NCBI GenBank assembly: GCA_037310415.1
Contig: CP147780.1
Coordinates: forward strand, 576,001 to 640,000
Reading direction: 5' to 3'
DNA from: Candidatus Atabeyarchaeum deiterrae
GTDB lineage: Archaea; Asgardarchaeota; Atabeyarchaeia; Atabeyarchaeales; Atabeyarchaeaceae
Length of the DNA: 64,000 nt
The translations under genes were made by a program, and so were the position numbers. Below are positions 10,621 through 37,775 of the stretch, piece by piece. The notes beneath the pieces are model-generated. The model saw only the letters and a program-made list of their open reading frames with translations, did not search any database and was not told where the DNA came from. How positions within the stretch are numbered: position 1 is the stretch's first letter; the number at the start of each line of letters is the position of its first letter.

Positions 10621-10662
10621 TTCAACAGCCTTCTGGTCACACCTCTTCAATTCACTCTCAGG
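10621..10662 (-). repeat. Relic of atpB 3' end, copy 1
   Basis: Translates PESELKRCDQKAVE versus Atp[15 protein letters not shown]. Confidence 0.7.
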
Positions 10663-10713
10663 TGGCAATTAAAAATGCCGCAATGATCCATCGTCCGTGA
10701 ACTTGGTTTAGAA

Positions 10714-10753
10714 CACTTCTTTCCGCAGCGTCAGCATAATAGAAGATTTAAGA
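10714..10753 (+). promoter_or_regulatory. Promoter-like module (BRE/TATA, TTTAAG) repeated at 18350-18388
   Basis: CACTTCTTT...AATAGAAGATTTAAGA; the 16-bp core is identical at both sites. Confidence 0.6.
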
Positions 10754-10828
10754 GGCTTGCAGCGTTATTTCTATTGGAATGCGAAGGGGCGGAGTTCTTC
10801 CTTACCTTGAAAGAGTAGGTGGTGTGAA

Positions 10829-11218
10829 ATGTCAAAGCAGGGAAATAAGAATTGGGTATTTGAGGACAGCGAAGCCGTCATAGGCAATAACGTAGTAACC
10901 TTCAAGAGAAATGAAGATGCCATGTCGATGGTATCGTTGAGACATGTCGCAAGCGTTGATTTGAACTTCAATGTAGTCTACGTAAATATCGATCAAGGGG
11001 ACGCAAGTTCGCATGAGCCAGCTTTCTTCGAATGCAAAGCATCGACCAGAGAAGAAGCGAGATATTTCTTCGAAGCATTGAAGCAGAAAATGGATTTTGG
11101 CATACAAATGTCGAATCAGACAATGGGTTCAGGCACTCAGACAAGTTGCCCCTACTGTAAGAGCTTGATCGGTCCGAATGCCAAATTCTGTAGTTCTTGT
11201 GGTTCGAGCTTGAGTTAG
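10829..11218 (+). CDS. Zinc-ribbon domain protein (possible PH-like N-terminus)
   Basis: CPYCK...FCSSCG at the C-terminus. Confidence 0.65.
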   Translation: MSKQGNKNWVFEDSEAVIGNNVVTFKRNEDAMSMVSLRHVASVDLNFNVVYVNIDQGDASSHEPAFFECKASTREEARYFFEALKQKMDFGIQMSNQTMGSGTQTSCPYCKSLIGPNAKFCSSCGSSLS

Positions 11219-11399
11219 GCGAATGGGTCTAAGCTTGAGTATTAATTAGGCCGATATAGGTCCTCCCAATTTCATATTCAAAGTCAATCTCTTTTTGTTA
11301 ACTTTCCACTCAGCTCATTAAATAATGGCTTCATGCCCGCGCGCATGCCGCGAAAGTGATAGCCAATGGGATAGTTTGATTGTTTACTGATCTTAATTG

Positions 11400-11873
11400 T
11401 CATCGTATTGCTGACCTAAGGTGTTTTGGAAGGCGCAGTGATTGCCAATCTTGCCATCCTTGCCTTAGATTTTTTGGAAGGCGCCGTGTTTGCCAATTGA
11501 GTTCTTTGGCAATTATTGCCTCGGCATTAGCAGAATTGGTTGCTGCAACGACTTTAAGAGAATAGTAAGCAGCGCCGAAGGCGTGTTGGGGAACATGTGC
11601 AGTTGCCACCGCTTGGCCTGCTGCGTGCGCGGCAAAACAAGCCGCGTTATTTTCTTTCGCTTCGCGGGCGGCGGCGTGAGCTGCGAGCGCAGCCTTGCGT
11701 ATGTCGGCCATCTTAAACACGCCTGTGCGAACCCATGTTCGGCATGCTTCTATTGCTTTGCGGGGTCGGTCGTCCTTCGGGTATGTCTTCTCGAAAAATG
11801 GAAGTACTCGTTCGGCGCAGTCCGCGGCCCAGATTGCCAGCGATCTCTGATCTTGTTTGTTGAATTTCTTCAT
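11400..11873 (-). CDS. Imm5-like putative immunity protein
   Basis: LAIWAADCAERVL...DDRPRKAIE...AAHAAGQAVATAH pattern. Confidence 0.75.
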   Translation of the reverse strand: MKKFNKQDQRSLAIWAADCAERVLPFFEKTYPKDDRPRKAIEACRTWVRTGVFKMADIRKAALAAHAAAREAKENNAACFAAHAAGQAVATAHVPQHAFGAAYYSLKVVAATNSANAEAIIAKELNWQTRRLPKNLRQGWQDWQSLRLPKHLRSAIR

Positions 11874-12029
11874 TGCTTTTATTGTAATCGTCTGAATTTT
11901 ATAAGCGTATCTAGAATTTACCTGATGCTAAAAGTACTCTCAACAGATTCTAACCAGCGCACTAACTTTCAAATATGTGGGGTGATATACTCTAGGAAGA
12001 GTTGGGGATTATTAGGAGATGATTCTGTC

Positions 12030-13397
12030 TTGTCTGAGACCAAGAAGGTTCATGATCATATCGATGAACACTTCCAGGATCACTTGAAGGTTATGCAAGA
12101 GTATCTGAGGCAGCCAAGCGTCTCATCCACTGGAGAAGGTATGAAGGAAATCGTTGAGCTGACCCAGAAGTACATTGAGACAATGCTCGGGGGCTCGACG
12201 GAAGTCGTCAGCACTAAGGGATATCCTGTTGCGTATGGAGATGTCCAATCCAAGAAGAGCAAGAGAACCATGTTCATCTACGGAATGTATGACGTGCAAC
12301 CAGTCGAACCGCTTGATGAATGGGTCTCTCCCCCATTCGAAGCGAGGATAGTGGGTGAGAAGCTGATCGCAAGGGGCGCAATGAACTCGAAGGGGCCTCT
12401 TGTAGGCATGCTCTGCGCTTTGAAGTCGATCCTTGAAGTTACTGGAGACCTGCCGTTCAATCTCGTGTTCGGGGTGGAGGGTGAGGAGGAGCTGGGGAGT
12501 GTCCATTTGCCGGAGTTTGCGGAAAAGAAGTCAAGTGAACTCAAGCGTTGTGAGGCGCTACCTTGGTGGCTTCCCACTCAGGTCATGCCTGGAGCTCCCC
12601 CGGTCCTGAACCTTGGATTTAAGGGTATAGTCTACATGGAGCTTGAGTGTCAAACCAACCCATCGGACATTCACTCTGGTATGGCTAATATTATTCCTAA
12701 CCCTGTGTGGCGACTTGTTTGGGCGCTTAACTCTATGCGTGGACAGGACGAAGTACTCATCGATGGGTTCTATGATAATGTGCAGCCTCCGTCAACGGAA
12801 GACTTAGAATTGACTGATAAGAGCGCTCCGGTGGTTCTTGCAGCTACGCAAAGCATGTACAATGTCAAGAACTTCAGAAGTGATGTAAGAAACCCGAAAA
12901 CTGTGGCAAGGAACCTAATATACAAACCAAGCCCCATTAACATCGACGGCATCATAAGTGGATGGACTGGACCTGGAACAAAGACAATAACCCCGTCGAA
13001 AGTCATGGCTAAGATCGATGTTCGAATAGTGCCAAATATGACCACCCATGAGGTGGTTGATAAAATTAAATTGCATTTGAAGAAACACGGATTCGAGGAC
13101 ATTAAGGTGAATGTTCTTGGAGGCTATGAATGGGTCAAGACATCAATCAGGGATCCACTTGTTCAAGCCGCGATCAAGACGGTGGAGGAATTCGGCTACA
13201 AACCAGTGATAAACCCAATGATGCCCGCATCCGCACCATTCTACCTGTTCTGCAAGGAACCATTCAATATGAGAATGGTTAACGGAGGTCTAGGACATGG
13301 AGGACTTATACATGCACCTAATGAGTACTTGATGGTGAAGGACATTAGGAACTTTGAGAAGTCCTTCGCGTCACTTCTACTCAACTACGCCAAGTAG
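12030..13397 (+). CDS. M20/M25/M40 family metallopeptidase (dipeptidase-like)
   Basis: YDVQP, ARGA..SKG, EGEEELGS, IHAPNE; TTG start at 12030 after AGGAG. Confidence 0.9.
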   Translation: MSETKKVHDHIDEHFQDHLKVMQEYLRQPSVSSTGEGMKEIVELTQKYIETMLGGSTEVVSTKGYPVAYGDVQSKKSKRTMFIYGMYDVQPVEPLDEWVSPPFEARIVGEKLIARGAMNSKGPLVGMLCALKSILEVTGDLPFNLVFGVEGEEELGSVHLPEFAEKKSSELKRCEALPWWLPTQVMPGAPPVLNLGFKGIVYMELECQTNPSDIHSGMANIIPNPVWRLVWALNSMRGQDEVLIDGFYDNVQPPSTEDLELTDKSAPVVLAATQSMYNVKNFRSDVRNPKTVARNLIYKPSPINIDGIISGWTGPGTKTITPSKVMAKIDVRIVPNMTTHEVVDKIKLHLKKHGFEDIKVNVLGGYEWVKTSIRDPLVQAAIKTVEEFGYKPVINPMMPASAPFYLFCKEPFNMRMVNGGLGHGGLIHAPNEYLMVKDIRNFEKSFASLLLNYAK

Positions 13398-13564
13398 CTT
13401 GAACTGCAAAGTTTGAGGGGGAAAGAGAAGCGAAAGTCCTTGGTCTACTGAGAGATCCGGCAAAATTCTTCGGGGCTGTAAGACGTGAGAACTGGAAGTC
13501 TGCCTTTGGATTCTTTCAAGCAATCACGATATTCATTTCTATTGAACGCTGGAGCTGATACAGA

Positions 13565-14479
13565 ATGAGACATAGAAACCTTGCCTTGATGCTGTGCGTC
13601 TTCGTGTTGGGAATTCTTATTTACGCAGGTATGGTAATTACACCTCAACAGTTTTCACAAGATAATATTACAAGTGGCAATTACAGTTATGATGACATTC
13701 GACTAAAGCCGCCAGTGATCCCACCTCAACCGATAACACAGCCAGACGATAATAGTTTACGTATCCATACTTTGTATTATGACGTGAAGCTCGTTTCAGG
13801 ATTCATTAAATCGTTTCTTGTAAATGGAACGAATATCTTGAAGAATAGTGAGATAGAGACAATATATGGTCTGTCGATGAATGAGTTTGCCTATGGAGAT
13901 CATGTTGGCAATATGCTGTATGCGCTCCAATGTAATTACAGGGCAACGTATTCAGTAGAAGCAAGGAATAATGAAACAACAGTAAAGTGTATAGTAGCAG
14001 ACAACAATTTCTATTCTGTCAGTTTCCTATTCAACAACACTTTCATATTCAGTAACAACACACCTACGGTAGAGGTGTTCACAACTAGAATCATTGATTT
14101 CTCAAGAACATCTCATCGAACTTCGGCTAATCAAATCTGTTTCATCTTTGATGCGAGTTCAGTTGATGCGTATTTTGATGACGTGAATTTCTTCTATGCT
14201 AACACAACTATCTTCACGCCAAATCTAGACTCATCTTATGCTGGGTACATGTTGTCTGGCGGAATAAACTTCACCATCTCAATCATGGAAAGTTACCCGA
14301 TGCGCCCAGGCAATTGCTCTTTCTTGGGTACGAGCTTTGGCCCTAGTTTTATGGGTTACAATGAGATTCAAGTGACTTATCACGGATTGAGCGACAGTAC
14401 GACACCTGTAAGAATTGGAGACATACTAACAGAATCTTTGCATTACACGATCCTTTTCGAGAATGAAACAATTGGATAA
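13565..14479 (+). CDS. Secreted or membrane-anchored hypothetical protein
   Basis: N-terminal hydrophobic segment; many N-x-S/T sequons. Confidence 0.6.
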   Translation: MRHRNLALMLCVFVLGILIYAGMVITPQQFSQDNITSGNYSYDDIRLKPPVIPPQPITQPDDNSLRIHTLYYDVKLVSGFIKSFLVNGTNILKNSEIETIYGLSMNEFAYGDHVGNMLYALQCNYRATYSVEARNNETTVKCIVADNNFYSVSFLFNNTFIFSNNTPTVEVFTTRIIDFSRTSHRTSANQICFIFDASSVDAYFDDVNFFYANTTIFTPNLDSSYAGYMLSGGINFTISIMESYPMRPGNCSFLGTSFGPSFMGYNEIQVTYHGLSDSTTPVRIGDILTESLHYTILFENETIG

Positions 14480-14502
14480 ATAATCAGAGGTTGAGCAGGA
14501 CC

Positions 14503-14562
14503 TTCAATGGTCTTTGGATCACACTACTCCATCTCACCATCAGGAAATATCGAAAACAGCTC
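14503..14562 (-). repeat. Relic of atpB 3' end, copy 2
   Basis: Translates ELFSIFPDGEME*CDPKTIE versus Atp[21 protein letters not shown]. Confidence 0.85.
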
Positions 14563-14588
14563 CACAGGGGCTTTCTCATCAATTTGCT

Positions 14589-15560
14589 TTATTTATGCCT
14601 TCTAAAGAAGACACCCAGGTTCCGAGGGAGAATGCCGAGATCGTCTAGAATGTCAAGATGCATCAGTTTTCTAAGTGTTTCTTCAGGTAGCTTATCACGC
14701 GATGCGCCATCCAGTAGTAAGTGTGTTTCTTCTTCAGAGAATTCCTCTTCTTCTCCAATCCATTCCATGAATTGCTTGTCTAATGGGCAAGCTCGTTGGC
14801 AGCGCATGCATCCTTCGAGGCAGTTATGCCAGGAAGCATCCATCCAGCTTGGGAAGGGGACATCACCTTTCTTTTCGTTATGATAGGTAATACATCGCTC
14901 AGCCCGCAGGAGGAAGCGATCCGAAGGAATAGCTCCGGTTGGGCAAGCTCGACGACACAGTTCGCATTTCTCGCAGTTGGGCAGCATTGTTGCTTCCTGC
15001 CAACTGTCTTCTTGGCAAGGCATGTCGGAGTAAACGGCTACAAGTTGGAGAAAACTTCCCATGCCAGAGACATAGCAGAGGTTGTTCCTGCCGTATTGCC
15101 CTAGACCACTTCGCACTGCCAATAGTTTTAGAGGCAATTCGGTTCCCGTTGACCTGTAGCCTTTTTCGCCGAGTATTTTTGCGAGAAGTTTCTGGATTTT
15201 TTCTGTTACGTCTTTGTATGCCGTGTAAGTAGGAGGAATGATGAGGGGACGGCGTTGTCCCTTCCAAGTGAAAATCGCTCGAGTCTGGGGTCTGGGAACA
15301 GCGACTACAATCATTGACTCTGCTTTTGGCAGGGTTTCTGGGATCTGGAAGCGAAGCCAAGCAAGCCGATCTTGGTAAAACTGATTGTCTAATAGTCCTT
15401 GATGATATTGCCCTTGTATATGTTCCTGCAGCAATTGCAGATGATGGATGGAAATCGCCCTTACCTGATAACCAAGATCTTTTAATCGATTAGGCAGTTC
15501 ATTGGCAAGCCTATTCATGAAAGAAGACAACATGTAAGCCACATATAAGCGCGACCGCAC
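14589..15560 (-). CDS. Epoxyqueuosine reductase (QueG)-like 4Fe-4S double-cluster protein
   Basis: LAVRSGLGQYGRNN, CEKCELCRRACPTGAI, C.GCMRCQRACP. Confidence 0.8.
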   Translation of the reverse strand: MRSRLYVAYMLSSFMNRLANELPNRLKDLGYQVRAISIHHLQLLQEHIQGQYHQGLLDNQFYQDRLAWLRFQIPETLPKAESMIVVAVPRPQTRAIFTWKGQRRPLIIPPTYTAYKDVTEKIQKLLAKILGEKGYRSTGTELPLKLLAVRSGLGQYGRNNLCYVSGMGSFLQLVAVYSDMPCQEDSWQEATMLPNCEKCELCRRACPTGAIPSDRFLLRAERCITYHNEKKGDVPFPSWMDASWHNCLEGCMRCQRACPLDKQFMEWIGEEEEFSEEETHLLLDGASRDKLPEETLRKLMHLDILDDLGILPRNLGVFFRRHK

Positions 15561-15681
15561 TCATGTGAGACAAGATTTTCCAAGCTTGTCGGAGAACACT
15601 GATATTTCTGATATCCATGTCTAGCTGCCCGAATTTGTGGACTGATTAGATTTATAAGGCAATGTTATACTTTATGTATCG

Positions 15682-16530
15682 TTGGTAAGCATGACAGATG
15701 CTAAGGATACAGAGAATGTAAGAACTGGACTGAGCAGAAATGAGAGTCTACTACTGTCTTCTCTATCCGAAAGTGGCAAGACTATCTTCAGGATAGGTGA
15801 CATTGCAGTTGAACTAAAGTGTTCTTATGAGTATGCGAAAGTTCTTGCCCACAACCTGGTGAAAAAGAAGTGGATAATTGCTCTAACAAGAGGAGTCTAC
15901 CTCATAGTTCCATTAAGTGCAGGAGTAAAGTCACATTATACTGAGCACGAGTTTGTGATAGCTTCGTACCTTGCTTCGCCTTATTATATAGCATATTGGA
16001 GTGCTCTGAACTTCCATGGGTTTACCGAGCAGACACCTCTCACAGTCTTTGTCGCAATCACAAAAAGAGCAAAGAGTAGAGAGATTCTGAATGTCAAGTA
16101 CAACTTCGTGACATTAAGCGAAAGAAAATTCTTCGGCTTTGTACCAACGAAAATCGGCACATATGAAATCAATATCTCAGATCGTGAGAAGACATTAGTG
16201 GATGCTTTAGATCATTCTGAGTACTGCGGAGGCATACTTGAAACAGCAAGGTCTCTGTTGAATGCTAGGGAAAGGGTATCGATGGAGAAGATTGTCAAGT
16301 ATGCAGAAAGAGTGGGGAATACTGCAATAATCAAGAGGCTTGGATACCTAATAGAGAGTTTGAATCTAAATGTAGATTCAAAGATTCTCTTTGAAATGAG
16401 AGGATTGATTTCACCAGGAATGTCACATCTTGACTCTACATCTCCCAAAAAAGGTAGGTACAACACGAGATGGAACCTTTTGGTGAACGTCTCCAAGGAG
16501 ACTCTTGAAGAGTTGAGGCGAAGCTTTTGA
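15682..16530 (+). CDS. abiEi: AbiEi-family antitoxin / transcriptional regulator
   Basis: RGVYL, YIAYWSALNFHG.TEQ, SDREKTLVD, KRLGYL; overlaps the downstream toxin gene by 4 nt. Confidence 0.85.
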   Translation: MVSMTDAKDTENVRTGLSRNESLLLSSLSESGKTIFRIGDIAVELKCSYEYAKVLAHNLVKKKWIIALTRGVYLIVPLSAGVKSHYTEHEFVIASYLASPYYIAYWSALNFHGFTEQTPLTVFVAITKRAKSREILNVKYNFVTLSERKFFGFVPTKIGTYEINISDREKTLVDALDHSEYCGGILETARSLLNARERVSMEKIVKYAERVGNTAIIKRLGYLIESLNLNVDSKILFEMRGLISPGMSHLDSTSPKKGRYNTRWNLLVNVSKETLEELRRSF

Positions 16531-17321
16531 TATCATCAGAGCAAATAAGGAGAATTGCGAGAGAGGAAAAACTCGCGGCTGGCGTTGTAGAGAAAGACTA
16601 CGCGCTCACATGGTTATTGAAAGGAATCTATCTGATGGGTAGCGGCTTGGATGATAAATTCGTTCTGAAGGGAGGTACTGCGATTAGAAAGGTCTATTTC
16701 CCTCAGACTTGGAGATTCTCGGAAGACCTAGACTTCACCGTTGCTGGGGCTATGAAACCTGAAGGCATAAAAGAATCTATTCAACGTGTACTCAAAACGC
16801 TTTTCCAAGAGAGCGGCATCAACTATTCGCTTGAATCGTTCCACTCGACAGAGGGATCAGTAACGGCTGAAGTCCAGTACGTTGGCCCATTGAATTTCAC
16901 AAATAGAATTAAGCATGACATTAGTTTGAGCGAGAAAATGGTATTGGAACCGGAACGTCGACCTGTTAGGACCATCTACTCGGATCTACATGAGTTCGAT
17001 TTGGTTGTCTACTCTTTGAATGAGATCCTCGTGGAGAAGATTAGGAGTATTATTCAAAGAGGCTACTCGCGCGACTATTATGATGTCTGGAGATTGTTGA
17101 GGGGGAATGGATTCAGGGATTCTGACATAAAAAGGCTTCTGAAAAGGAAATGCGAATTGAATGGGGTAAAGTGCGAGCCAAGTCTGCTGTTTGATGAGAA
17201 AAGACTGAGCGAGGCGCAATCATATTGGGAAAAAGGATTGCAGTACCTAACTAAGGAATTACCTCGGTTCGAGGTTGTCATTTCGGAGATGAAAGGGAAG
17301 CTGAGCTTCCTGCAAGAATAA
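16527..17321 (+). CDS. abiEii: AbiEii/AbiGii nucleotidyltransferase toxin
   Basis: EKDY, LKGGTAI, RFSEDLDF, EKIRS, RDYYD. Confidence 0.92.
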   Translation: MISSEQIRRIAREEKLAAGVVEKDYALTWLLKGIYLMGSGLDDKFVLKGGTAIRKVYFPQTWRFSEDLDFTVAGAMKPEGIKESIQRVLKTLFQESGINYSLESFHSTEGSVTAEVQYVGPLNFTNRIKHDISLSEKMVLEPERRPVRTIYSDLHEFDLVVYSLNEILVEKIRSIIQRGYSRDYYDVWRLLRGNGFRDSDIKRLLKRKCELNGVKCEPSLLFDEKRLSEAQSYWEKGLQYLTKELPRFEVVISEMKGKLSFLQE

Positions 17322-17323
17322 GG

Positions 17324-17443
17324 TTACTTGTAGCAATTAGCCTTACGCGCATCACCAATAGTCTTAGGATCGCACCTCTTCATTTCACTCTCAGGAAACA
17401 CCGAAAGAAGCTCCCAAGCCAAATCAAGAGTCTGATCAATGCT
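17324..17443 (-). repeat. Relic of atpB 3' end, copy 3 (longest, 39 codons plus stop)
   Basis: [39 protein letters not shown]; 33 of 39 residues match the AtpB C-terminus, with many synonymous changes. Confidence 0.97.
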
Positions 17444-17568
17444 TAGAGGAGTCCGCTTGCTATTTGCGTGAAGCGCGTATCTCAACAACTTCGCAGAGAT
17501 CCAATCGATGTCAACCTTTGAATTTCAACAATTCTGAAGATCTGAGCAACGCATGCCAAAAAAAGACA

Positions 17569-18135
17569 TTAGGGCTTCTTCACTTCACGGTGTATCCACC
17601 AGACGAGCCCAATAACGATAGGAATTCCGAAAACAATTGCCGTCCAGACCAGTATCGTGATAATTGAGTCTACAACATAGTTCAGAGTCCAAGTAGCAAT
17701 GGCAACGTTCCAGTTTCCATCGATAAAGACCTTGATGCAGAACGCAATGAAGAGCAACAGCGGTATTCCACTTCCACCCCTTCTTGCACGTGAGCGTTTA
17801 CCGGAGAGGTGATATTCTCTCTTCTCCTTACTAGGCAGCCTTCTCCACCATAGCCAACCCGCCACTCCACCTACGACCGCAGGGACCCCAATAAAAAGAA
17901 GCTCCCAGAAAACCAAATACAAAATGAAAGTCACTACGTTCCCCATTGTCCAAAGACCCAAAGCCACAGGTACCAGGCCTGTCGACAGAGCACTCCCAAC
18001 GAACCATAAGAAGACATAAACTGCACCCACAAATGCTAGAATACCTGCTATCACAAATACGACAACTATGCCCCAATGTTTTCCCAGGAATTTCCTCCGA
18101 GCATCTGAACCACTTTCAGACTCAGTTCCTGACAT
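17569..18135 (-). CDS. Membrane hypothetical protein
   Basis: About 4 hydrophobic helices; GGAG ribosome-binding site and TATA-like TTATATA upstream. Confidence 0.7.
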   Translation of the reverse strand: MSGTESESGSDARRKFLGKHWGIVVVFVIAGILAFVGAVYVFLWFVGSALSTGLVPVALGLWTMGNVVTFILYLVFWELLFIGVPAVVGGVAGWLWWRRLPSKEKREYHLSGKRSRARRGGSGIPLLLFIAFCIKVFIDGNWNVAIATWTLNYVVDSIITILVWTAIVFGIPIVIGLVWWIHREVKKP

Positions 18136-18231
18136 CCTGAATCTCCTCTTCCTTCAAAACCAGAACAATTACAGTACTTGAATATGTGCCAAATATATAA
18201 GCATTGACATCGCGTGCGCCATTACGTACGA

Positions 18232-18315
18232 GCGATTAGCTTTCCGCGCAGCCTCAATAGTCTTCGGATCACACCGCTTCATCTCACCCCCAGGAAACAC
18301 AGATAACGACTCCCA
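18232..18315 (-). repeat. Relic of atpB 3' end, copy 4
   Basis: [28 protein letters not shown]. Confidence 0.95.
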
Positions 18316-18457
18316 AGATTCACATCCCAGTCGTGCGCTGGGCACGGATCACTTCTTTTGAAGCATCGACGGAATAGAAGATTTAAGAAGGACGGATGGC
18401 ACTGCTTACAGTGGCTGGGTGGGAGCGGACACCAGACTTCAAAAGATGGTGTTTCAG

Positions 18458-19273
18458 ATGAAAAGAACAATGAGAATATTCATGCCAATTGTTTTTGTCC
18501 TTGCAGTTGTAATGATTGCGCCTATTTTCCTTTCATTTTACTATCCAGTGTTTCAAAATATCTTCGTCGCGTATTGGAGCCTAGTCGCTACTATCATACT
18601 GGTTGGTTTGACCGCATGGTACTCTATTATGACAAGCGAGACATTGGCTGAGACTAGAAAGGAGAGAATGCGACCAACACTTGCCCACGTAGTGAGCAAA
18701 GCACTACCCCTCTTGATAGATGACCTTGACAGGGAGATCGCTTCCAAGAACTACGACTACCACAATGATCCGCCGTACTTTCACACCCTAGACCCCGAAG
18801 CCCACGTCGAGAACGAAAACGTAATGGAGAAGTTTTTCATGCAGAAGCTGCTCAAAGAGTATCCTCGAACAGCCTTGCTCGTCAAAGACCACAATGAACT
18901 TGTAACTAAACTGAAGAAATCATACGAGGAAATCTTCAAGTCACTATACACAGAGGACTTCAAAACGACCATCCAAAAGGCTATAGACGAATACAACAAA
19001 ACTGCGGAGAAACCCATTGACCACACCCCGGAAAGCTACGCAATAGAGTTGATAAACTACTCCGATGAATTCATGATGAGCCTCACGGCAGACGCATTTA
19101 TGTTTTACAGAGCAAAGAAAGACGTCTTGAAGGAGTTTCTGGTGCGGGAAGAAGTTCAAGAGAAGATAAAAACTCGTGATGAGATCTCCTCGAAACTCAA
19201 GGAAAGTGCAAGAGAACTGAAAGAAGAGTTTGAGAAGATACAGAGAACATTGGCGGAGGAATATCTGTTGTAG
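18458..19273 (+). CDS. Hypothetical protein with two N-terminal transmembrane helices and a helical C-terminus
   Basis: Long ORF; start set at ATG 18458. Confidence 0.65.
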   Translation: MKRTMRIFMPIVFVLAVVMIAPIFLSFYYPVFQNIFVAYWSLVATIILVGLTAWYSIMTSETLAETRKERMRPTLAHVVSKALPLLIDDLDREIASKNYDYHNDPPYFHTLDPEAHVENENVMEKFFMQKLLKEYPRTALLVKDHNELVTKLKKSYEEIFKSLYTEDFKTTIQKAIDEYNKTAEKPIDHTPESYAIELINYSDEFMMSLTADAFMFYRAKKDVLKEFLVREEVQEKIKTRDEISSKLKESARELKEEFEKIQRTLAEEYLL

Positions 19274-20397: not shown

Positions 20398-20427
20398 TTG
20401 AGTCGTCCATCCGTCTATGACGCGTAG

Positions 20428-26173: not shown

Positions 26174-26179
26174 GGAAGT

Positions 26180-28014: not shown

Positions 28015-28018
28015 TAGT

Positions 28019-29029: not shown

Positions 29030-29032
29030 TTT

Positions 29033-30529
29033 CTAACCCCCTAAGATCCTGAGCAAGTCAGCTTTCGACAAATAGCTGCGCTTAAATGTAATGCACTCTG
29101 TGTCGCCCAGAGTATATTTCGCGATCAGTTCCTTCTTCTCCAATATCTCATCAGTATATTCATCTATTGTATCTTTAGCGATAATCTTGAAGACCTTGCA
29201 TGGCTTGGTCTGCGTTATTCTGTGGATCCTGTCTTGCGATTGAAGATAGTCATCCATTTTGAAGGTTCGGTCCACATAGATTGCGTTGTTTGCGGAAGTT
29301 AGAGTTAAACCTTCTTTTGCGGCAGCTGGGTTCGCAATCAGCAACTTGCATCGCTCTTCGTTCATGAACTTCTTTACGATGTTGAGACGATCCATAATTG
29401 GAATCTCTCCGAAAAGCATCTGCGCCCCAAATTCCTTGAAACGATTCCTGAGTGTTCTAATGTTTCCAATGAAACTTGTCCATAAGATTGCTTTCTCTTT
29501 TCGCTCCACAACATCACGAACAAGTCTGTTCAAAACCTTGAACTTGCCCGGTTCCTCATTATACTGAATGTTTAACAAGCCTGGGTTGCTAGCGATTTGA
29601 GTAAGTCGGAGTAGTTTAACCAGATAATTGTCTATCTCTTCCTCGATCTTCTCTCCGTCGGAGTTAGAGATCTCATAGTAGAGTTCACTTCTAGCCTTGT
29701 CATAGGCTATTCTTTGCTTAGGCGCAAGTTCGGCGGTTACGTTCTCAAAAGTTTTTTCGGGAAGCTCCAATACATCCTTCGTTCTTCTAATAGAGACTGG
29801 TCTCAAGGTCTCCCTTAACGATTTTAGACTCAATTCGAATTGGCTCATGTCTTGGGCTCCCTTCAAGTCGACCTTGAATCGCTTTTGGAAAGCGTCAAAG
29901 TCGTCTCCAAGTAGCACGCCACCATCCAAGAAATAGAATTGAGACCACAGGTCTTCTGGTCTATTTGCAATTGGCGTCCCTGTGATTATGATCCTCTTTG
30001 CAACAAGACTCCTCAAGGAGATTACAGCTCTTGCTGTCTTCGATTTTGGGTTTTTCATTTTTTGGGATTCATCAAGAACCATTGCGAATCTTCGCTGCCT
30101 CAACAATAGTTCAATGAACTCGGTCTCCTGAATCAGGGATTCGTAGTTGGCTATATAGAAGTGTCCATAGGTTGTAAGCATGCGACCCCGTTGCATTCTT
30201 GAGCCGTCCAAAACTACTGGAAGGAGATTCGAGTGTTTCTCTATTTCGTCTTTCCACATATATAATAGAGACTTCTTACAAATAATAAGCGCACCGTCTA
30301 TCGTTTTCTCCTTCATGTTTCGGCACAGAGCATCGATGACGATTTTGCTTTTGCCCAGACCCTGCTCATCAAACAATGGCACGTCATTGTGAGTGCTGAC
30401 ATAGTCTGTAGCCTCGATCTGATGTTCAAGAGGCTCGGTTTTCGAGGAGAAATCAAATGTGACTTTCTTAATCAGTCTCAACCAACTCCTCAGGAAGCAC
30501 AATGTACGAGACATTAGTAAGTTTTTCAA
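29033..30529 (-). CDS. SNF2-family helicase (start uncertain)
   Basis: DEQGLGKS, LDESQKMKN, TGTPIAN, EGLTLT, QSQDRIHRI. Confidence 0.92.
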   Translation of the reverse strand: MKNLLMSRTLCFLRSWLRLIKKVTFDFSSKTEPLEHQIEATDYVSTHNDVPLFDEQGLGKSKIVIDALCRNMKEKTIDGALIICKKSLLYMWKDEIEKHSNLLPVVLDGSRMQRGRMLTTYGHFYIANYESLIQETEFIELLLRQRRFAMVLDESQKMKNPKSKTARAVISLRSLVAKRIIITGTPIANRPEDLWSQFYFLDGGVLLGDDFDAFQKRFKVDLKGAQDMSQFELSLKSLRETLRPVSIRRTKDVLELPEKTFENVTAELAPKQRIAYDKARSELYYEISNSDGEKIEEEIDNYLVKLLRLTQIASNPGLLNIQYNEEPGKFKVLNRLVRDVVERKEKAILWTSFIGNIRTLRNRFKEFGAQMLFGEIPIMDRLNIVKKFMNEERCKLLIANPAAAKEGLTLTSANNAIYVDRTFKMDDYLQSQDRIHRITQTKPCKVFKIIAKDTIDEYTDEILEKKELIAKYTLGDTECITFKRSYLSKADLLRILGG

Positions 30530-30887
30530 GACCGAGATCGACCATTAAGCGCAACAAGATGCTTTCTTCGTTTCTGGGCACTCCGATTATTAGTTCAAAT
30601 CTCAGTCCGGATGTAGCCCCAACAATATTCGAATAGTCCAGCAGTTGCTCTCTAGTTCTTTCTGACAACAAGTCATCTCCAGTTTTTGCCTCGCCAATGC
30701 ATAGCACCTTGGTTTCCATGTTTATGCCAATTACATCTGGTCTGTGTCTACCTATCCTCGGGGGAACATGCACCGCTTCACCATGAAATGTGTAATACTG
30801 CCCATCATATGCGACTGGAGCATACCCCTCCTCCCGCATCTTTCTGCCTATTAGGTCAACAAGCATTCGGTGCATCCGCGATGGCAT
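30468..30887 (-). CDS. PD-(D/E)XK restriction-endonuclease-like protein
   Basis: HRPDVIG...IGEAKT motif. Confidence 0.7.
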   Translation of the reverse strand: MPSRMHRMLVDLIGRKMREEGYAPVAYDGQYYTFHGEAVHVPPRIGRHRPDVIGINMETKVLCIGEAKTGDDLLSERTREQLLDYSNIVGATSGLRFELIIGVPRNEESILLRLMVDLGLEKLTNVSYIVLPEELVETD

Positions 30888-30891
30888 GTCT

Positions 30892-32064
30892 TCAACTCAC
30901 TTCGAACTTCTTAAACATCTCTGCTATACTCGAAATTTGTTTATATAGCTCGAGAATCAGTTCCTTCTTCTTTGGCTCCTCGCCTGCAACAATGCTCCTT
31001 TCCTCTTCTCGTGACATGCTCTTGAGGCCTTCTATACACTTGTTCATGTGTTCGAACAGTCTCGAAGCATAAGCTGGCATAGACAGACTGAGCTCTTCTT
31101 TTGCGGCGGAGAAACCTTCCTCCTTCAGTACTTTGACAATCTCTTTGTTATCAAACATCTTCTTCAGATCTCGAACGTCTTGAGCACGCACGATCTCCCC
31201 GTTCCCAACCCAATCACAGAAGTCTTTGTCTTCAAGCTCGTGTTTCTTCATTCCATCTATGATCTTCTTGCTCTCGTATTCAACGAAATATGAAAACTTC
31301 GTGAATGGATTGTCTCTGCCTGTGTAGCTTGGCAAAAACTGTTCGGTCATGAGTTTGTATGCTTTTATCCATCTTCTGATGTCGACCAACGAAAGTTTCG
31401 TCGTATCCATAAGTCGCCGTTCGCTGTATCCCCTCTTGTCCCATAGTATGTACAGCATTCTGGCTCTCTCGTAGGCTTGCCAGTCATTCTGTGCGCGTAA
31501 ATGTGCTATGAGGCGGATGAAGTTTCTTGCGCGCTCATCGGTGCCCTCTGGAAGGATCCTTGCCTTGATCTTCGTGTATTCCTCTTTCCTTGGGTACTTG
31601 TCTCTTAATTCTCTGTAGATAATCACTCTTGTGTTGCCATCTATGCACAGATATTTCTCACCTTTCTTCATGACCCAGATCATTTCGACGGCGCCACCGC
31701 CAGCCTCGATGCTGCTCTTCAATCTGTTGTATGCGTCCACATTCTGCTGTTTCAAGAAATAGACCAGGGTTTTTTGATTTGTTGTCTGCCCCGCGCTAAG
31801 ATAGTTGTCTCTTGCGTATCCAATTCTGGGATTCTCTTCATCCAATTCGATCTCGTCTATGGGAATATCATCGATTTCGATCTCTTCTGGCACGCCATCG
31901 ATTGGAACTTCCATTTTGTACCGATCCTTTTCCTCCTTTCTCTCACTCGGCGCCAGAAGTACACTTTTGTCATCAATGTCTTCGGACAACTTGTCACACC
32001 TCTTCTCTACATTTACCCCCTCATGAAGTCGTGCGGTGAACCCCCAGTGAGTCTGGCAAGTCAA
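30892..32064 (-). CDS. ParB/Srx-like N-terminal domain protein (true start probably later than the ORF start)
   Basis: LDEENPRI, IDGNTRV, WQAYERA; paralog of 28019..29029. Confidence 0.8.
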   Translation of the reverse strand: MTCQTHWGFTARLHEGVNVEKRCDKLSEDIDDKSVLLAPSERKEEKDRYKMEVPIDGVPEEIEIDDIPIDEIELDEENPRIGYARDNYLSAGQTTNQKTLVYFLKQQNVDAYNRLKSSIEAGGGAVEMIWVMKKGEKYLCIDGNTRVIIYRELRDKYPRKEEYTKIKARILPEGTDERARNFIRLIAHLRAQNDWQAYERARMLYILWDKRGYSERRLMDTTKLSLVDIRRWIKAYKLMTEQFLPSYTGRDNPFTKFSYFVEYESKKIIDGMKKHELEDKDFCDWVGNGEIVRAQDVRDLKKMFDNKEIVKVLKEEGFSAAKEELSLSMPAYASRLFEHMNKCIEGLKSMSREEERSIVAGEEPKKKELILELYKQISSIAEMFKKFEVS

Positions 32065-32293
32065 GCATTCTGGCAGTCCTTTTAGTGTGATCTTGCCAAA
32101 ACATGTCTATATAGATTACGTTACACTTGAGACATTCACAATCCTCAGAAGAGCCTCGCGCCAAATCTATTCTTAGCTGAAACCATTGCAGGGCGTGGGT
32201 TGAATGTCTCGTCGGTGGACCGATCATAGAATCAATAAAGAGACAGAGAGGATCAGGCGAGTCACGTACTTGTAGTGACCGACCCTGTGACTA

Positions 32294-32342
32294 GCCTCAT
32301 TATCTTAGGATCGCACCTCTTCATCTTACCCTCAGGAAACAC
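32294..32342 (-). repeat. Relic of atpB 3' end, copy 5
   Basis: VFPEGKMKRCDPKI; near-identical at nucleotide level to 17362-17401 and 36335-36374. Confidence 0.9.
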
Positions 32343-32804
32343 CCGACGACAACTCTTAGTTCTGCCAACCATCCTTTCCTAAGACAGAATTGCATCAACT
32401 GGATGCAAGTGGTGAACTGCTTGTGTAGAGAAGAGACAAAAAGATGTGTCGAAGTCATCCATACGCTAGGCGCCGATGCTCAGCGAGACATAATGTAGGA
32501 GCATCCTTTATGATCCGTCGATCTCAACGGAAACAACCTAGCATCAGAATCAATGAATTCGCAGAAATGAGTTCTGGACAGAAAGCTATATAGAAGGTAT
32601 TCTATAACAAATAATGACCGCGACGAATGAAAACAGACCAAAAAGAGAATAAAGAAGAAACAATATAGTAGCGCGACGAGCAGCCCAGTTGGTTTAAGCT
32701 CCGAATGGGGGTTAAAATGGGGAAATCAACAAAGAATTAGTGAAAACACACATAAATTAGACAGCTTTTCTTGATGAGAAGTAAGACAGAAAGGGGGTTT
32801 CGCA

Positions 32805-33224
32805 TTGGAAAGACTTCCCAACACTGAACTATTGGCATTAGTTGCAAGCTATCTCGGAACAATAGAAGGGCGAAAGCGCTTTCAAAAGATCGTGTTTCTC
32901 CTGAAGGAAGAGTCCGCGGTTCAATTCACCTATCCTTTCACTTCGTACCTTTACGGTCCCTACTCTTCAAGACTCCAAGATGACATCGACATCCTCGTAC
33001 GAACTGGCAATCTACAGGAAGAAAAGGCTGGTTCTCTTTTCCGCTACAAGATTACCGACCTGGGACGCAAGAATGCTCATCAAATAGAGAGGACATACAG
33101 GCAGCATCTCGCGAAAGATCTACGTGGCCACCTGAAAGACTTACAGCAACAGGACACCGAGGAATTGGTGAACCGATCGAAAAGAATAATGAACAAGAAA
33201 ATCAAACACAACATTTTCGCTTAA
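32805..33224 (+). CDS. YwgA/DUF4065 (SocA-Panacea-like) wHTH protein
   Basis: GRKRFQKIVFL, F..YLYGPYS..L. Confidence 0.75.
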   Translation: MERLPNTELLALVASYLGTIEGRKRFQKIVFLLKEESAVQFTYPFTSYLYGPYSSRLQDDIDILVRTGNLQEEKAGSLFRYKITDLGRKNAHQIERTYRQHLAKDLRGHLKDLQQQDTEELVNRSKRIMNKKIKHNIFA

Positions 33225-33235
33225 GGCGAGAAGCA

Positions 33236-34570
33236 ATGTTTTGTGACCCTGAACTCAAGATCAGCATCCCATATGAATACGTAAAAGATCCAATTTATGG
33301 CTATATTAGAGTTTATGAGCACGAGCACAAGATCATCGATACCGAGTCGTTCCAGAGACTTAGACGTATAAAACAGCTAGCCGCGGCGCACTATGTATAT
33401 CCAGGTGCGACACACACACGCTTCTCTCACAGCTTGGGCGTAATGCACCTTTCAGGGCTCTTCGTCAAGCAGTTGCTTGAGTCCTGCAAGAATGAGATTC
33501 CAGATGATACTTTTTTGCGCTATTTCTTCTTAATGAGGCTATGGGGTCTCACCCATGATTTGGGACATGGACCCTACTCTCATACTTTTGACAAAGCGGT
33601 GCTTGAACATATGGGGATAAATCATGAATACATGTCCTCGAAGATTGTCGTGGATGACAATATTATTGCAGAAACCATAGAAAAAGATCTTAGCGACTAC
33701 GACATAAGACCTAAAACACTGTCAGAATACTTGGGTAAGACCCGAGAAGAATGGCCAAAGGGAGAGAAACTAGGTAACACACAACACAATGAATCATCCT
33801 TCTATTACGTACTGAAAGGATCTTATAGCACTGACATTATTGATTACTTGCTCAGAGACAATCTCTATACTGGCGCAGGGTATGGAAACTTCGACTGGCA
33901 ACGATTGATCTTATCTTCATGTCTACACGGCGATGAGGTTGCTCTAGACGTTAGAGCTCGTGATACGTTGGACGCTCTCTTGCTTTCGAGATTATTCTCT
34001 TTCAACACAATCTATTACCATAGATGGTCGAGAGCCGCGGATCACGTAATGAGAGTTTTCTTATCAAAAGCAAACAAGAAAATCGATCTGGCTGACTATG
34101 CCAACGATGTCGAGGAATATAAGAAGCTGGACGAGGAAAGCATTCTCCAAATGAGAGAACTCACTGACATCCCCGAGCGAAAAATGTTGCTTGACAGGGA
34201 AATACCCTTCAGAGAGATTGACAGACGCAAGATCCAGCTCTCCTCTGACATAGCGATTCTGGATGAAGATAACTTGAACTCTAAGCTCTCCGAGACATTG
34301 GAAAGCAGAATCCCTAGTGAAGCGTACTTTGTGGATACACCGAATTTGCCTTTGAACCCAATGAGGGATGAGGACGTCTGTATTGTTGACCACTCATCAT
34401 CGCCAACCGCGGTATGGCACGAGCCTGTCAGGAAAACATCTTGGGGAGAAGTACCTTACTCCGTTTGGATAGTACGACTATACCTAGACAAAAAATATGA
34501 AAAGAATGAGGAAGATGTAAAAAGGGCGTTTCAGGATGCTATCACAGGTAAGAAGGGATCACACTTCTGA
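33236..34570 (+). CDS. HD-domain dNTP triphosphohydrolase-like protein (island copy)
   Basis: FQRLRRIKQL, HTRFSHSLG, HDLGHGPYSH, D.IDYLLRD, YYH. Confidence 0.88.
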   Translation: MFCDPELKISIPYEYVKDPIYGYIRVYEHEHKIIDTESFQRLRRIKQLAAAHYVYPGATHTRFSHSLGVMHLSGLFVKQLLESCKNEIPDDTFLRYFFLMRLWGLTHDLGHGPYSHTFDKAVLEHMGINHEYMSSKIVVDDNIIAETIEKDLSDYDIRPKTLSEYLGKTREEWPKGEKLGNTQHNESSFYYVLKGSYSTDIIDYLLRDNLYTGAGYGNFDWQRLILSSCLHGDEVALDVRARDTLDALLLSRLFSFNTIYYHRWSRAADHVMRVFLSKANKKIDLADYANDVEEYKKLDEESILQMRELTDIPERKMLLDREIPFREIDRRKIQLSSDIAILDEDNLNSKLSETLESRIPSEAYFVDTPNLPLNPMRDEDVCIVDHSSSPTAVWHEPVRKTSWGEVPYSVWIVRLYLDKKYEKNEEDVKRAFQDAITGKKGSHF

Positions 34571-35266
34571 ATTAGGCCCCTTTTGGTCATGCGACGGTTC
34601 TAATGGTTTTTCTTCTTCATAAACTAGTTATGTAGGAACTGATGTTGATTCAAAGATTCTTGATCTACATCGTTGCCAGTTTTCACTTGTCAAGGAGCTT
34701 CGCAATAGTTCATCCTATCCGTTACTTGGGAATTGACCCTATAAGAGCGTGATTCTCGAACTCGCTAAACCTCGTGAGTATGGACGGTTCTGAACGTTTG
34801 AGAAGTGTGTGAATGCCAGATTTCATATACAGGGTAGCGGAGAGCTCAGTGAAAAAACATGTCGAATAAGAACGTCTGTTAACGCCCTAACCTAAGGTTA
34901 TAGAAAAGGCTATGCAGAAGGAAAATCGAATTCTTATCATGGTCACCCTTGGCAACTAGGGAGAATAGAAATAACAATGAACAAAGACAAGGGAAATTAG
35001 AGGAAACCATGAGTCCCTGGTGACCTTCCCTACGAGCACCATCGATGTACTCAGAATCCAAGAGAGAAGGTTAAGCGGTTGAGGACGCAGGACTATCGGG
35101 CGCCTCTCTCAGGGCTTTCTGCAAAAATGGTATAGGATGAACAGCCACGAATCGAGTAGTAGAAGAAGGCAAGATAAGTATGAGACTATTAATAATATCC
35201 ACGGAGTAGCAGGATTAGTGTGCGGTTGCGCAGGTTGTGATTGATCTATATTGATGGATTCTTCAT

Positions 35267-36052
35267 ATGCATGATTTTCTAAGGGTGGTTTTGTTGAGAA
35301 TGACTAAGCGGAAACATGTAGTAATCGTAGATACAGGATTTAGGCGACTGATTTATCCCTTGGATTCCTCGTTCATAAAGGATTTGGATCCAAAGCGTGT
35401 TAATAGTTGGATTGAGACTGGTTGGAGTATAGACAAGACTGTCATGCTTGAAATAGATTATCCAACCATTCCAGAATATCGTAGTCCTGAAGGCTCAGTC
35501 GCCTCGAACATATTCTCAGGCATAATATATGCATGGAACACGGGTAAATACTACAGGATAGTCACTTTTAGCAAGAGATATTTTGAAGAAGTCGACGAAT
35601 TTAACAGGAAAGTTGAAGTGTATCATGAGGGGCTTCATTTGAGAAGCTATGAGGACTCTCTGCTTACTGGCTCAAGACCTTTGACAGAAGACGATGTTGC
35701 AAGGGCAGAGGTAGAATATGTTAGAAAGACTTATGGTAATGAGGGGTTTGCTGCAAGGGGGAGACACATATTGACTAATGAAGAAGAGTTCAAGAAAGCT
35801 GATGCGATAGCGGGGGTTGTCGCTCTCCTATGGCTCAGAGAATACTTCGAGGAGGAGCAGGCAAGGTACAGCCCGGTATCTTTCTCCATCCCGTCAAATA
35901 GTGAGTTTGTCAACTCCATCAGAAAGACGCACTATTCGATGATGATTCAACCTGTTACAGCATTTTACAGAGCAGCATTCAACCTTGATCCGTCATTGAT
36001 CTTTAGACACTGTTTGAAGAAGATAAACCTGCGCAACGATTCTCCAGAGTGA
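35267..36052 (+). CDS. Hypothetical protein with HExxH motif
   Basis: YHEGLH. Confidence 0.55.
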   Translation: MHDFLRVVLLRMTKRKHVVIVDTGFRRLIYPLDSSFIKDLDPKRVNSWIETGWSIDKTVMLEIDYPTIPEYRSPEGSVASNIFSGIIYAWNTGKYYRIVTFSKRYFEEVDEFNRKVEVYHEGLHLRSYEDSLLTGSRPLTEDDVARAEVEYVRKTYGNEGFAARGRHILTNEEEFKKADAIAGVVALLWLREYFEEEQARYSPVSFSIPSNSEFVNSIRKTHYSMMIQPVTAFYRAAFNLDPSLIFRHCLKKINLRNDSPE

Positions 36053-36272
36053 GGACCGAATTGCAGAAGGCGATACCGAAAGAAATGATAGAGCCTTTAA
36101 GAGCCAAGTATGAGAGCGAATGGCAGGAAGAGTGGGAGAAGGCAGTTCTAAGGATTATGCTGTTCACTTAATTCCTGTAGAATATGCACTAAATTACGCC
36201 CTACGGGAATACAACACAGACACACCTCGCAGGAAGGCCAAAAAAGAAGGGTCAGACAGCCAAAAAAGAGGA

Positions 36273-37775
36273 CTACGCAGTTGCTGACTGGGACATGTGC
36301 TTATACCTGTTCGCTTTCCTCGCAGCGTCAAGGGTCTTAGGGTCGCACCGCTTCATCTCACCCTCAGGAAACACAGACAACAAATCCCAGGCGAGATCAA
36401 GAGTCTGATCAATGCTACGATCCACATATTCACCTTGAGTGATAAACTTCCGCTCAAACGTATCAGCAAACTTCAAATACGCCTTATCCCGATCACTCAA
36501 AGCCTCCTCACCAATCACAGCAACTAAATCCCTGAAATCCATACCCTCACTAAAAGCATAATACAACTGATCCGACACTTCCCTATGATCCTCACGCGTC
36601 AACCTTTCTCCAGATTTTGTCACACCGATCCCCTCCTTCATCAACCGACTCAAAGACGGACGCGGGTCGATCGGGGGGTATATACCCTTGTGATGGAGAG
36701 CCTCAGAAATAATGAGCTGTCCCTCAGTAATATACCCAGTAAGATCTGGAACGGGGTGTGTGATATCAGAATGCGGCATCGTCAAGACTGGCATTTGTGT
36801 TATTGTGCCTTTTCTGCCTATTATGCGTCCTGCTCTTTCGTATATGCTGGCGAGGTCTGTGTAGAGGTATCCTGGGTATCCTCTTCTTCCTGGGACTTCT
36901 TCTCTTGCTGCGCTGATTTCTCGTAGGGCTTCTGCGTAGTTTGTCATGTCTGTTAGGATGGCTAGGACGTGTAGGTTTTGTGTGTATGCTAGGTATTCTG
37001 CTGTTGTTAGGGCGCATCGGGGTGTTATGATGCGTTCTATTGCTGGGTCGTCTGCGAGGTTTAGGAATAGGACTGTGCGTTCGAGTGCGCCTGTTCGTTC
37101 GAAGTCTTTGCGGAAGTATTGTGCTTCTTCTGCTGTTATGCCCATGGCTGCGAATACTACGGCGAATTGTTCTTCTTTGCCGAGTACTTTTGCTTGGCGT
37201 GCTATTTGTGCGGCTATGCGGTTGTGTGGTAGTCCTGCTCCGCTGAAGAGTGGTAGTTTTTGTCCGCGTACGAGTGTGTTCATTCCGTCTATGGTGCTGA
37301 TTCCTGTTTGGATGAATTCTCGGGGGTATGCTCGTGCTTCGGGGTTTATTGGGCTGCCGTTTATGTCCCACATGTCTTCGGGTATGATTGGTGGTCCGTT
37401 GTCTATGGGTTCGCCTGAGCCGTCTAGGGTTCTGCCGAGTATGTCGGTTGTTACTGGGATTTTTAGTGGTTCGCCTGTGAATTGTGCTTGTGTGTTTTTG
37501 GTGTCGAGTCCTGTTGTGCCTTCGAAGACTTGGACGATGGCTTTGGTTTTGGTGATTTCTAGGACTGTGCCTCTTCTTTTTTCTCCGTCTGGTGTGGTTA
37601 TGTTGACGAGTTCGTTGTATCCTACGCCTTGGACGTTTTGGATGATGATTAGTGGTCCTGTTACGTCTGAGATGGTTTTGTAGGTTCTTTTGGCGTAGAG
37701 TGCTGCTGCGGCGATGTGGGCGGCTGTGGCTGTTTTGGTGGCGCTTTCTTGTTTTTGTTGTTTGGTTGTTGCCAT
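36273..37775 (-). CDS. atpB: A/V-type ATP synthase subunit B
   Basis: [59 protein letters not shown]. Confidence 0.98.

Follow-up and report, generated by a model that had tools for sequence, protein, structure and literature searches.

How does one conserved gene come to head an island of DNA that is divided, again and again, by remnants of that gene's own 3′ end? The question is raised by atpB, the gene for subunit B of the A/V-type ATP synthase, in the Asgard archaeon Candidatus Atabeyarchaeum deiterrae. The window that we analysed is a stretch of 64,000 nucleotides (nt), positions 576001-640000 of a single-contig genome of 2,756,679 bases; positions below use window numbering unless the genome is stated. 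A reading of the letters alone (the original prediction) had proposed that incoming DNA repeatedly replaces the end of atpB and pushes older cargo outward. We find that the remnants, here called relics, are once-functional gene ends arranged in a polar stack with the youngest nearest atpB, that similar arrays occur in relatives and behind a second gene, and that these islands encode no recombinase belonging to any known family. Two related genomes served for comparison: Atabeyarchaeia-1 (G001; Promethearchaeati archaeon SRVP18_Atabeyarchaeia-1, CP147779.1) and isolate LC30 (G002).

Displaced ends of atpB

The whole genome was searched for relics by tblastn with the last 80 AtpB residues and by blastn with the atpB 3′ end. 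Six pieces of the atpB 3′ end were found (Table 1), all on the atpB strand and within 26 kb downstream of the gene, and in the 2.76-Mb genome they are confined to that place. Outside the 26 kb, whole-genome tblastn gave no further copy with E < 0.1, so the relics are tied to atpB, as had been supposed, rather than spread genome-wide; the chance of four significant same-strand copies within 26 kb of atpB is ~5e-10 (arithmetic from the tblastn matches). The coordinates and minus orientation of the original prediction, together with its residue count for the third copy (R3), proved correct by tblastn and blastn. All five of its relics are real, but it had missed a sixth, tail-only piece (Rx), whose alignment score of 24 compares with 8 ± 1.2 for shuffles. 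Four relics (R2-R5) are detected by blastn, at identities of 77-87%. R1 (10621-10662) alone is weak (E 1 by tblastn), and is taken as genuine because its region aligns with that of R4 over ~135 nt, including ~75 nt of flank unrelated to atpB, with a score of 35 against 9.7 ± 1.3 for shuffles.

The core of the relics, 35-41 nt long, codes for FPEGE(M/L)KRCDPK, and the smallest relic, a 27-nt piece in Atabeyarchaeia-1, equals the atpB core. Relic borders vary, as had been noted, with 5′ borders lying from ~14 to at least 80 codons ahead of the stop; in the best-kept array the 3′ sides extend to the stop codon. The flanks of relics are unrelated to the flanks of atpB.

Counted against the genome's own atpB, the four blastn-detected relics differ 20/6/39 times at codon positions 1, 2 and 3, respectively (P 3e-6). 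This set is given apart because the weakest relics were found by protein similarity and therefore form a biased set; pooled over three genomes, the counts are 89/59/150, and an independent set on JGI contig Ga0314860_0000791 gives 22/17/60 (P 5e-8). Neutral local duplicates would give equal thirds. Because the differences are concentrated at third codon positions, the relics are once-functional gene ends, the divergence of which arose while they were coding in other genomes; the earlier description of the differences as largely synonymous was thus borne out. Many relics stay in frame until they reach a stop codon of their own. Nucleotide identity between the three atpB genes falls to 0.67-0.70 in the last 60-90 nt; because this part is also the least constrained, the fall is no firm sign of a breakpoint within the working gene.

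The stack is polar. At 4, 18, 19, 22 and 26 kb, the 41-nt cores of R5, R4, R3, R2 and R1 match atpB at 37, 37, 36, 31 and 28 of 41 positions, respectively, and the sole in-frame stop sits in R2, one of the two outer relics. Working atpB and R2-R5 read E-M-K in the core; R1 and other genera read E-L-K. The M20 peptidase of the outermost block is 92% identical in protein to a copy on LC30 contig C51 (also flanked by relics there), a value close to the divergence level of AtpB itself (89%). Apart from one gene and a multi-copy family of proteins of 594 amino acids (aa), nothing in the inner modules matches Atabeyarchaeia-1 or LC30 at the DNA level. Because likeness drops with distance and the outermost block is common to the sister genus, the stack is youngest nearest the gene; this agrees with insertion beside atpB and outward movement of older material, much as the original prediction had envisaged.

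The arrangement is not an assembly chimera. Positions 17001-37000 are spanned, with zero differences, by one 25-kb contig from one public wetland run, and overlapping contigs from the run of a second study cover the same stretch, also with no differences. A look-up of the exact AtpB sequence returned two contigs with an identical arrangement in both. These runs may include the source sample and so have little weight as new strains.

Arrays in relatives and behind a second gene

Window AtpB is 87-89% identical to its orthologues in Atabeyarchaeia-1 and LC30. Gene order upstream of atpB is retained in Atabeyarchaeia-1 but lost downstream, so the downstream gene content is not identical across relatives, and it is downstream of atpB that relics are enriched in both relatives and in a JGI contig. 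Atabeyarchaeia-1 has four relics behind atpB, with cargo that includes a DpnII restriction-modification pair, a SocA/Panacea-like gene, PKD proteins and a paralogue of the 594-aa gene; it also holds tandem paralogous cassettes. In LC30 the relics number at least nine and are spread over four contigs; a single 12-kb contig holds six, spaced 1.1-2.5 kb apart. JGI contig Ga0314860_0000791 carries at least six well-kept relics on one strand, and atpB was found at the end predicted beforehand; in JGI contig Ga0528493_0000600 the island behind atpB is relic-free. In all, four genomes or contigs contribute ~25 relics behind atpB. When 301 genomes of the phylum were compared, the AtpB tail occurred in four or more copies in this family alone, and a scan of all GTDB genome contigs for the core pattern returned only Atabeyarchaeia-1 and LC30.

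The original prediction had treated atpB as a special anchor, a view that did not survive comparison of the genome with itself. A larger array of like build lies at genome positions 2,640,713-2,663,458 (locus 2640713-2664664), where the tail of a RuBisCO-like gene recurs in ~10 copies on one strand; between these copies lie PIN, HEPN, type IIG restriction-modification and HerA-like genes together with flavodoxin, LigB, methyltransferase and metabolic genes. This array contains no integrase and no member of the 594-aa family. Atabeyarchaeia-1 has it too (2700534-2712450), and G033, a genome from a different family, contains short-frame copies; relics behind the RuBisCO-like gene are about as many as those behind atpB. 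The core of this array is unrelated to the atpB core (a 9/11 match, within chance). The anchor gene itself reads as frameshifted at genome 2663458-2663492, where 28 nt are inserted between ...GSGGG and IHAHPNGP. An open frame of 69 aa is likewise seen at the Atabeyarchaeia-1 anchor, so that either genome may carry a split or broken gene.

Cargo modules and their setting

The modules between relics hold 1-10 genes each, on both strands, and comprise defence, toxin-antitoxin and ordinary genes, assigned here by Pfam, PADLOC, PHROGs and Atlas scans (Table 1). The idea that this cargo is foreign had to be narrowed: the M20 block is shared with the sister genus at core-genome divergence, and the single gene of module C has an 87% identical DNA counterpart in another relative, at G001:517250-517953, outside that genome's atpB island. 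The AbiE pair of module D is 85% identical to LC30 contig C247, which is itself relic-bearing. Two modules start with a promoter-like motif. The longest call for the M20 open reading frame (ORF; TTG at 11490, 635 aa) overlaps the opposite-strand Imm5-like gene; the LC30 copy, at 457 aa, puts the start near 12005.

Table 1. Features of the atpB island, in order of distance from the gene (window positions)
Feature	Position	Strand	Remarks
Intact atpB, anchor gene	36273-37775	minus	A/V-type ATP synthase subunit B, 500 aa; Pfam ATP-synt_ab_N, ATP-synt_ab and ATP-synt_VA_C across full length
Core inside atpB, 41 nt	36335-36375	minus	in all five core-bearing relics, missing from Rx; repeat search gives one family, six copies in register
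Module A, youngest	32356-36272		LmuC/PDC-M19A-like 32805-33224 (+); HD/dGTPase-like 33236-34570 (+); metallopeptidase-like 35267-36052 (+); no DNA match in Atabeyarchaeia-1 or LC30
Relic R5	32298-32355	minus	tblastn match 32298-32342, E 1e-3; blastn 87%; core only; homology stops after ...CDPK
Module B	19504-32297		defence block of ~13 kb
Module B, PD-Lambda-5_A/PDC-M38A-like paralogues	30892-32064, 28019-29029	minus	
Module B, SNF2 helicase	29033-30529	minus	ZorD/DpdE-like
Module B, radical-SAM-like gene	26755-28014	minus	
Module B, operon		plus	HerA-like ATPase 21169-24363; LAGLIDADG-like gene 24389-26173; small ORF 26180-26488
Module B, DUF6448 gene	20428-21003	minus	
Module B, CDF transporter	19510-20397	minus	
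Relic Rx, tail-only	19444-19503	minus	...RYEYMSQSATA + stop + ~12 nt beyond; directly after stop of CDF gene
Small module	18343-19443		284-aa helical protein 18419-19273 (+); no family assigned
Relic R4 with non-atpB flank	18232-18394	minus	R4 itself 18232-18318; E 1.7e-11; flank with promoter-like motif GGAATAGAAGATTTAAGA
Module C	17444-18231		one 188-aa gene 17569-18135 (-)
Relic R3	17327-17443	minus	39 codons, 33/39 residues as in AtpB; E 2.5e-17; own stop after ...ANCYK
Module D	14564-17326		AbiEi 15682-16530 (+); AbiEii 16527-17321 (+); 4Fe-4S protein 14589-15560 (-)
Relic R2	14503-14563	minus	tblastn match 14503-14562, E 2.8e-4; in-frame stop inside core
Module E, oldest	10670-14502		304-aa gene 13565-14479 (+); M20 peptidase ~12005-13397 (+); Imm5-like 11400-11873 (-); zinc-ribbon protein 10829-11218 (+)
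Relic R1 with flank	10621-10760	minus	core 10629-10669, reads ELK; outer limit of array; flank common to R4

An 18-nt promoter-like motif, GGAATRGAAGATTTAAGA, occurs at seven sites in the genome at no more than two mismatches, where ~0.1 are expected (window 10736-10753 and 18371-18388; genome 497024, 2161218, 2245789, 2365118 and 2659027). These sites include the flanks of R1 and R4, the RuBisCO array and a spot beside the gene for a 434-aa integrase.

Positions 607-8519 are backbone common to LC30, which places the boundary of the island somewhere between ~8.6 and 10.6 kb. Within this backbone, the first ~55 codons of a low-molecular-weight phosphotyrosine phosphatase gene are present in an ~80% identical copy, with the CX5R loop intact, 1.35 kb upstream on the same strand (6671-6848 and 8026-8203, with a 321-aa ORF between them); this is a 5′-end counterpart of the 3′-end relics. 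On the other side of the island, a 1,265-aa DUF87/HerA-like gene and a gene for a C13 (legumain-like) peptidase lie between atpA and atpB (38195-43600), in the same order as in Atabeyarchaeia-1, and GC and AT skew are extreme at 37-41 kb. The atpA of Atabeyarchaeia-1 (G001:C1:610894-611556) lies within a 1,169-aa open frame, compared with 600 aa in the window genome, and this longer open frame suggests an intein in the A subunit.

Growth of the stack and its parallels

What could build such a stack? Six-frame scans of the window found no tyrosine recombinase (PF00589, PF16795), serine recombinase (PF00239), Cas1 or TnpB, and the nearest tyrosine recombinase (PF00589) lies 78 kb before the window; the statement of the original prediction that the island encodes no recombinase therefore holds for the known families. 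No PF00589 match was found near atpB in Atabeyarchaeia-1 or LC30, no integrase among the called genes of the JGI contigs, and none in the relic-free atpB island of contig L029. Unknown ORFs, scanned by Pfam, PADLOC, PHROGs and Atlas, yielded metallopeptidase-like, helical and defence-like proteins instead of a recombinase. Tyrosine integrases are present elsewhere in these genomes.

Several established routes of insertion were rejected. A split integrase of the SSV type is ruled out, as no PF16795 or PF00589 fragment lies beside any relic. Casposon or transposon insertion finds no support: the only Cas1 of the genome is at 2.32 Mb, TnpB-like genes are also elsewhere, and the repeats are diverged and 45-240 nt long. 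The trans-acting Xer recombinase that had been suggested (insertion at dif, as by integrative mobile elements exploiting Xer, IMEX) is unlikely, because the two anchor cores are unrelated and the atpB core, at 0.61 Mb, is far from both extremes of cumulative GC skew (~0.03 and 1.22 Mb). There is no tRNA gene in the window that could have been the target. No relics of atpA were found.

The island is not devoid of DNA enzymes: it lacks a known recombinase, but one of its genes codes for a predicted LAGLIDADG endonuclease, members of whose family turn up behind atpB in other genomes. The 594-aa ORF in module B has no Pfam match. Its AlphaFold model (predicted local distance difference test, pLDDT, 83.6; predicted template-modelling score, pTM, 0.79) was matched by Foldseek to I-DmoI (template-modelling (TM) score by target 0.6-0.69, probability 1.0) and to intein homing endonucleases; when the LAGLIDADG family profile was searched against PDB sequences there was no match, so that only the fold search found this similarity. 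D261 and E364, the acidic residues of the two LAGLIDADG motifs, are invariant in 23 relatives. We therefore predict, on the strength of the model, a double-LAGLIDADG endonuclease of a rare Asgard family, with 28 relatives in 5.8e9 proteins, one of which bears PF14528. A family member is found behind atpB in all four islands that were assembled together with the gene, at 10 kb in the window, 1.3 kb in Atabeyarchaeia-1, 46 bp (convergent) in Ga0528493_0000600 and 17 kb in Ga0314860_0000791.

In the window and two JGI contigs, the LAGLIDADG-like gene is preceded by a HerA-like ATPase of 1,064-1,104 aa. The three-gene operon of HerA-like ATPase, LAGLIDADG-fold protein and small ORF spans window 21169-26488, L030 4677-10774 and L031 6611-12870, with a decayed copy at genome 939.5-941.9 kb, and is possibly an undescribed HerA-linked defence system. 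Because its gene follows the HerA-like ATPase in an operon, the LAGLIDADG-fold protein may serve as an effector of defence and not in homing; it is also a possible break-maker.

We tentatively favour integrase-free, homology-guided replacement of the atpB end. The last 40-240 bases of atpB would act as a reusable docking point for DNA from related archaea that brings its own working atpB end together with neighbouring genes. A crossover with resident atpB would fall inside its most conserved stretch, the core, which would be the longest stretch still near-identical between diverged donors and recipients, hence the clustering of crossovers there. The incoming end would become the new tail and its cargo would land right behind the gene, while the resident tail and older cargo would be shoved outward as a relic; repetition would yield a polar stack with the youngest beside atpB. 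Joining would be the work of general homologous recombination of the host rather than of a dedicated integrase, either by a single crossover with a circle looped out between two donor copies of the gene end or by a double crossover using two copies. Both the homology-guided step and the form of the incoming DNA are what we infer from the arrangement. The presence of several integrase-free anchors with unrelated cores fits a route that is independent of sequence, and the resemblance of part of the cargo to ordinary chromosomal genes at core-genome divergence also fits this account.

Several observations weigh against it. A 35-41-nt core is common to the core-bearing relics, and most 5′ borders lie within ~30 nt upstream of it, as would be expected of an attachment (att) site. 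R1 and R4 here, and G1b and G1d in Atabeyarchaeia-1, share a flank unrelated to atpB that ends at the same position and looks like an arm belonging to a single family of elements. That a few tens of bases suffice for recombination between ends 15-25% diverged is an assumption for these archaea, and the homology-guided account leaves the origin of the first duplicated end unexplained. Contigs of four public runs over 17001-37000 contain no relic-relic or atpB-relic joint, no excised circle, no empty site and no variant arrangement, although contigs hide rare forms. Documented arrays of this kind, furthermore, all rely on a site-specific recombinase (PMC5704250, PMC6563490).

Such a recombinase is at the centre of the chief alternative, which we consider doubtful: elements whose attP mimics the atpB end would integrate serially, and their integrases would later be lost, as in the decay of cis-mobilizable elements (CIMEs), or act in trans from a helper that is not integrated. 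Direct repeats of the target 3′ end around modules, with the gene restored, are the signature of that process (PMC5704250; PMC6563490), and the shared 41-nt core, the minimal 27-nt relic, the arm-like flanks and the integrases encoded elsewhere in these genomes are all in its favour. So is the near-identity of the relic cores of the JGI array at synonymous sites, where the anchor genes of different genomes vary. However, no integrase is found in the atpB arrays with their ~25 relics, in the L029 island or in the RuBisCO-like arrays, even in the youngest modules, and each of the unrelated anchor cores would require an integrase of its own, all of them absent. Homology to atpB reaches at least 240 nt in some relics, with borders that are many and different; the relics are once-translated ends of diverged genomes and part of the cargo is ordinary chromosomal DNA, and pattern scans of viral contigs and JGI metagenome contigs revealed no free element carrying the core.

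The predicted endonuclease offers another way in, which we regard as unlikely. It would cut a naive atpB end, and the broken end would copy a resistant, synonymously different donor end together with its cargo; because the downstream DNA of the donor is unmatched in the recipient, the other broken end would, on this proposal, be joined without homology and the old tail kept. No pre-existing relic would be required, and the expected outcome is a nested set of 3′ fragments whose 5′ ends vary, with the target differing at synonymous sites. The modelled double-LAGLIDADG fold with both catalytic acidic residues invariant, and the presence of so rare a family behind atpB wherever island and gene were assembled together, also speak for it. 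Yet the operon with a HerA-like ATPase resembles a defence system, paralogues at other loci are without an array in the genome self-comparison, the RuBisCO-like array is without a family member, and some relics reach far upstream of any single cut site. The broader version of this idea, in which conserved gene ends are integrase-free docking sites and, behind atpB, cutting of naive ends and one-sided donor repair would install a resistant tail with its cargo in a homing 'ratchet' that builds defence islands, is in our judgement an equally long shot. Purely local events, that is, repeated segmental duplication of the atpB end with later insertions between copies and no imported ends, are very improbable, and a small share of the probability goes to none of these readings. 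The tandem paralogous cassettes in Atabeyarchaeia-1 and the lineage-specific M codon common to R2-R5 and the resident gene would suit such a history, but neutral decay predicts an even spread over codon positions instead of the pooled and JGI counts given above, relic flanks are unrelated to atpB flanks, and the inner modules differ wholly between related genomes.

Genomic islands are usually ascribed to integrases that act at tRNA genes or at a few protein-gene ends. A close parallel to the present arrays is seen where integrative and conjugative elements (ICEs), integrative and mobilizable elements (IMEs) and CIMEs accrete in tandem at a housekeeping gene's 3′ end, for example ICESt1 and ICESt3 at fda in Streptococcus thermophilus (PMC5704250). 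There, as here, a protein-gene 3′ end is the target, the gene is restored, old att-bearing ends lie between modules, some members lack an integrase and growth occurs at the gene-proximal site. That process, however, depends on a tyrosine integrase from at least the incoming element, and none was found in our arrays, the repeats of which are long, variable in length and formerly translated, in an Asgard archaeon. A survey of integrated elements in Thaumarchaeota, also archaeal hosts in which protein-gene 3′ ends are used, placed 14 of 68 elements at such ends, with the element supplying the new stop, and mentions tandem arrays (PMC6563490). Those elements, defined by their integrases or casposases, carry short att sites or target-site duplications; the survey's list of targets does not include atpB, and integrase-less stacks of 5-10 relics are not described there (PMC6563490). 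Mobile elements of the same organisms (Atabeyarchaeia-1 and its sister lineage), including 'defence islands', were previously found by read mapping (Valentin-Alvarado et al. 2024; PMC11529989); those with defined ends have integrases and 11-bp att sites, and the main text of that paper and of its preprint makes no mention of 'ATPase', 'ATP synthase' or 'direct repeat'.

The original prediction called the stack integron-like, which stands as an analogy only. Like integrons, it consists of small packets of genes, often with toxin-antitoxin or defence functions, split by a recurring site with the newest beside a fixed anchor. It has no intI, however; the recurring sites are coding gene ends rather than attC hairpins, and the modules contain up to 10 genes on both strands, at least two of them starting with their own promoter-like motif. 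In other systems, such as the phage seg and mob genes and F-CphI beside psbA, a free-standing gene for a homing endonuclease lies beside its target gene; classical homing inserts cleanly, with homology on either side, and does not leave displaced ends in a stack. The likeness here is that a gene with a LAGLIDADG fold (by its model) is found behind a conserved gene in several genomes and that the ends differ synonymously; the stack of displaced ends and the frequent operon with a HerA-like ATPase set the present case apart.

In this Asgard archaeon, an energy gene that is essential and highly conserved thus keeps a polar and dated record of no fewer than five insertions; the same is seen in four genomes or contigs and at a second gene, with no integrase in any of the arrays. 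The recurrent predicted LAGLIDADG endonuclease would be a concrete candidate for the initiating enzyme. If the route is indeed integrase-free, defence and metabolic genes would be exchanged among these relatives of eukaryotes through conserved gene ends alone, and each relic would be a fossil allele of a donor lineage.

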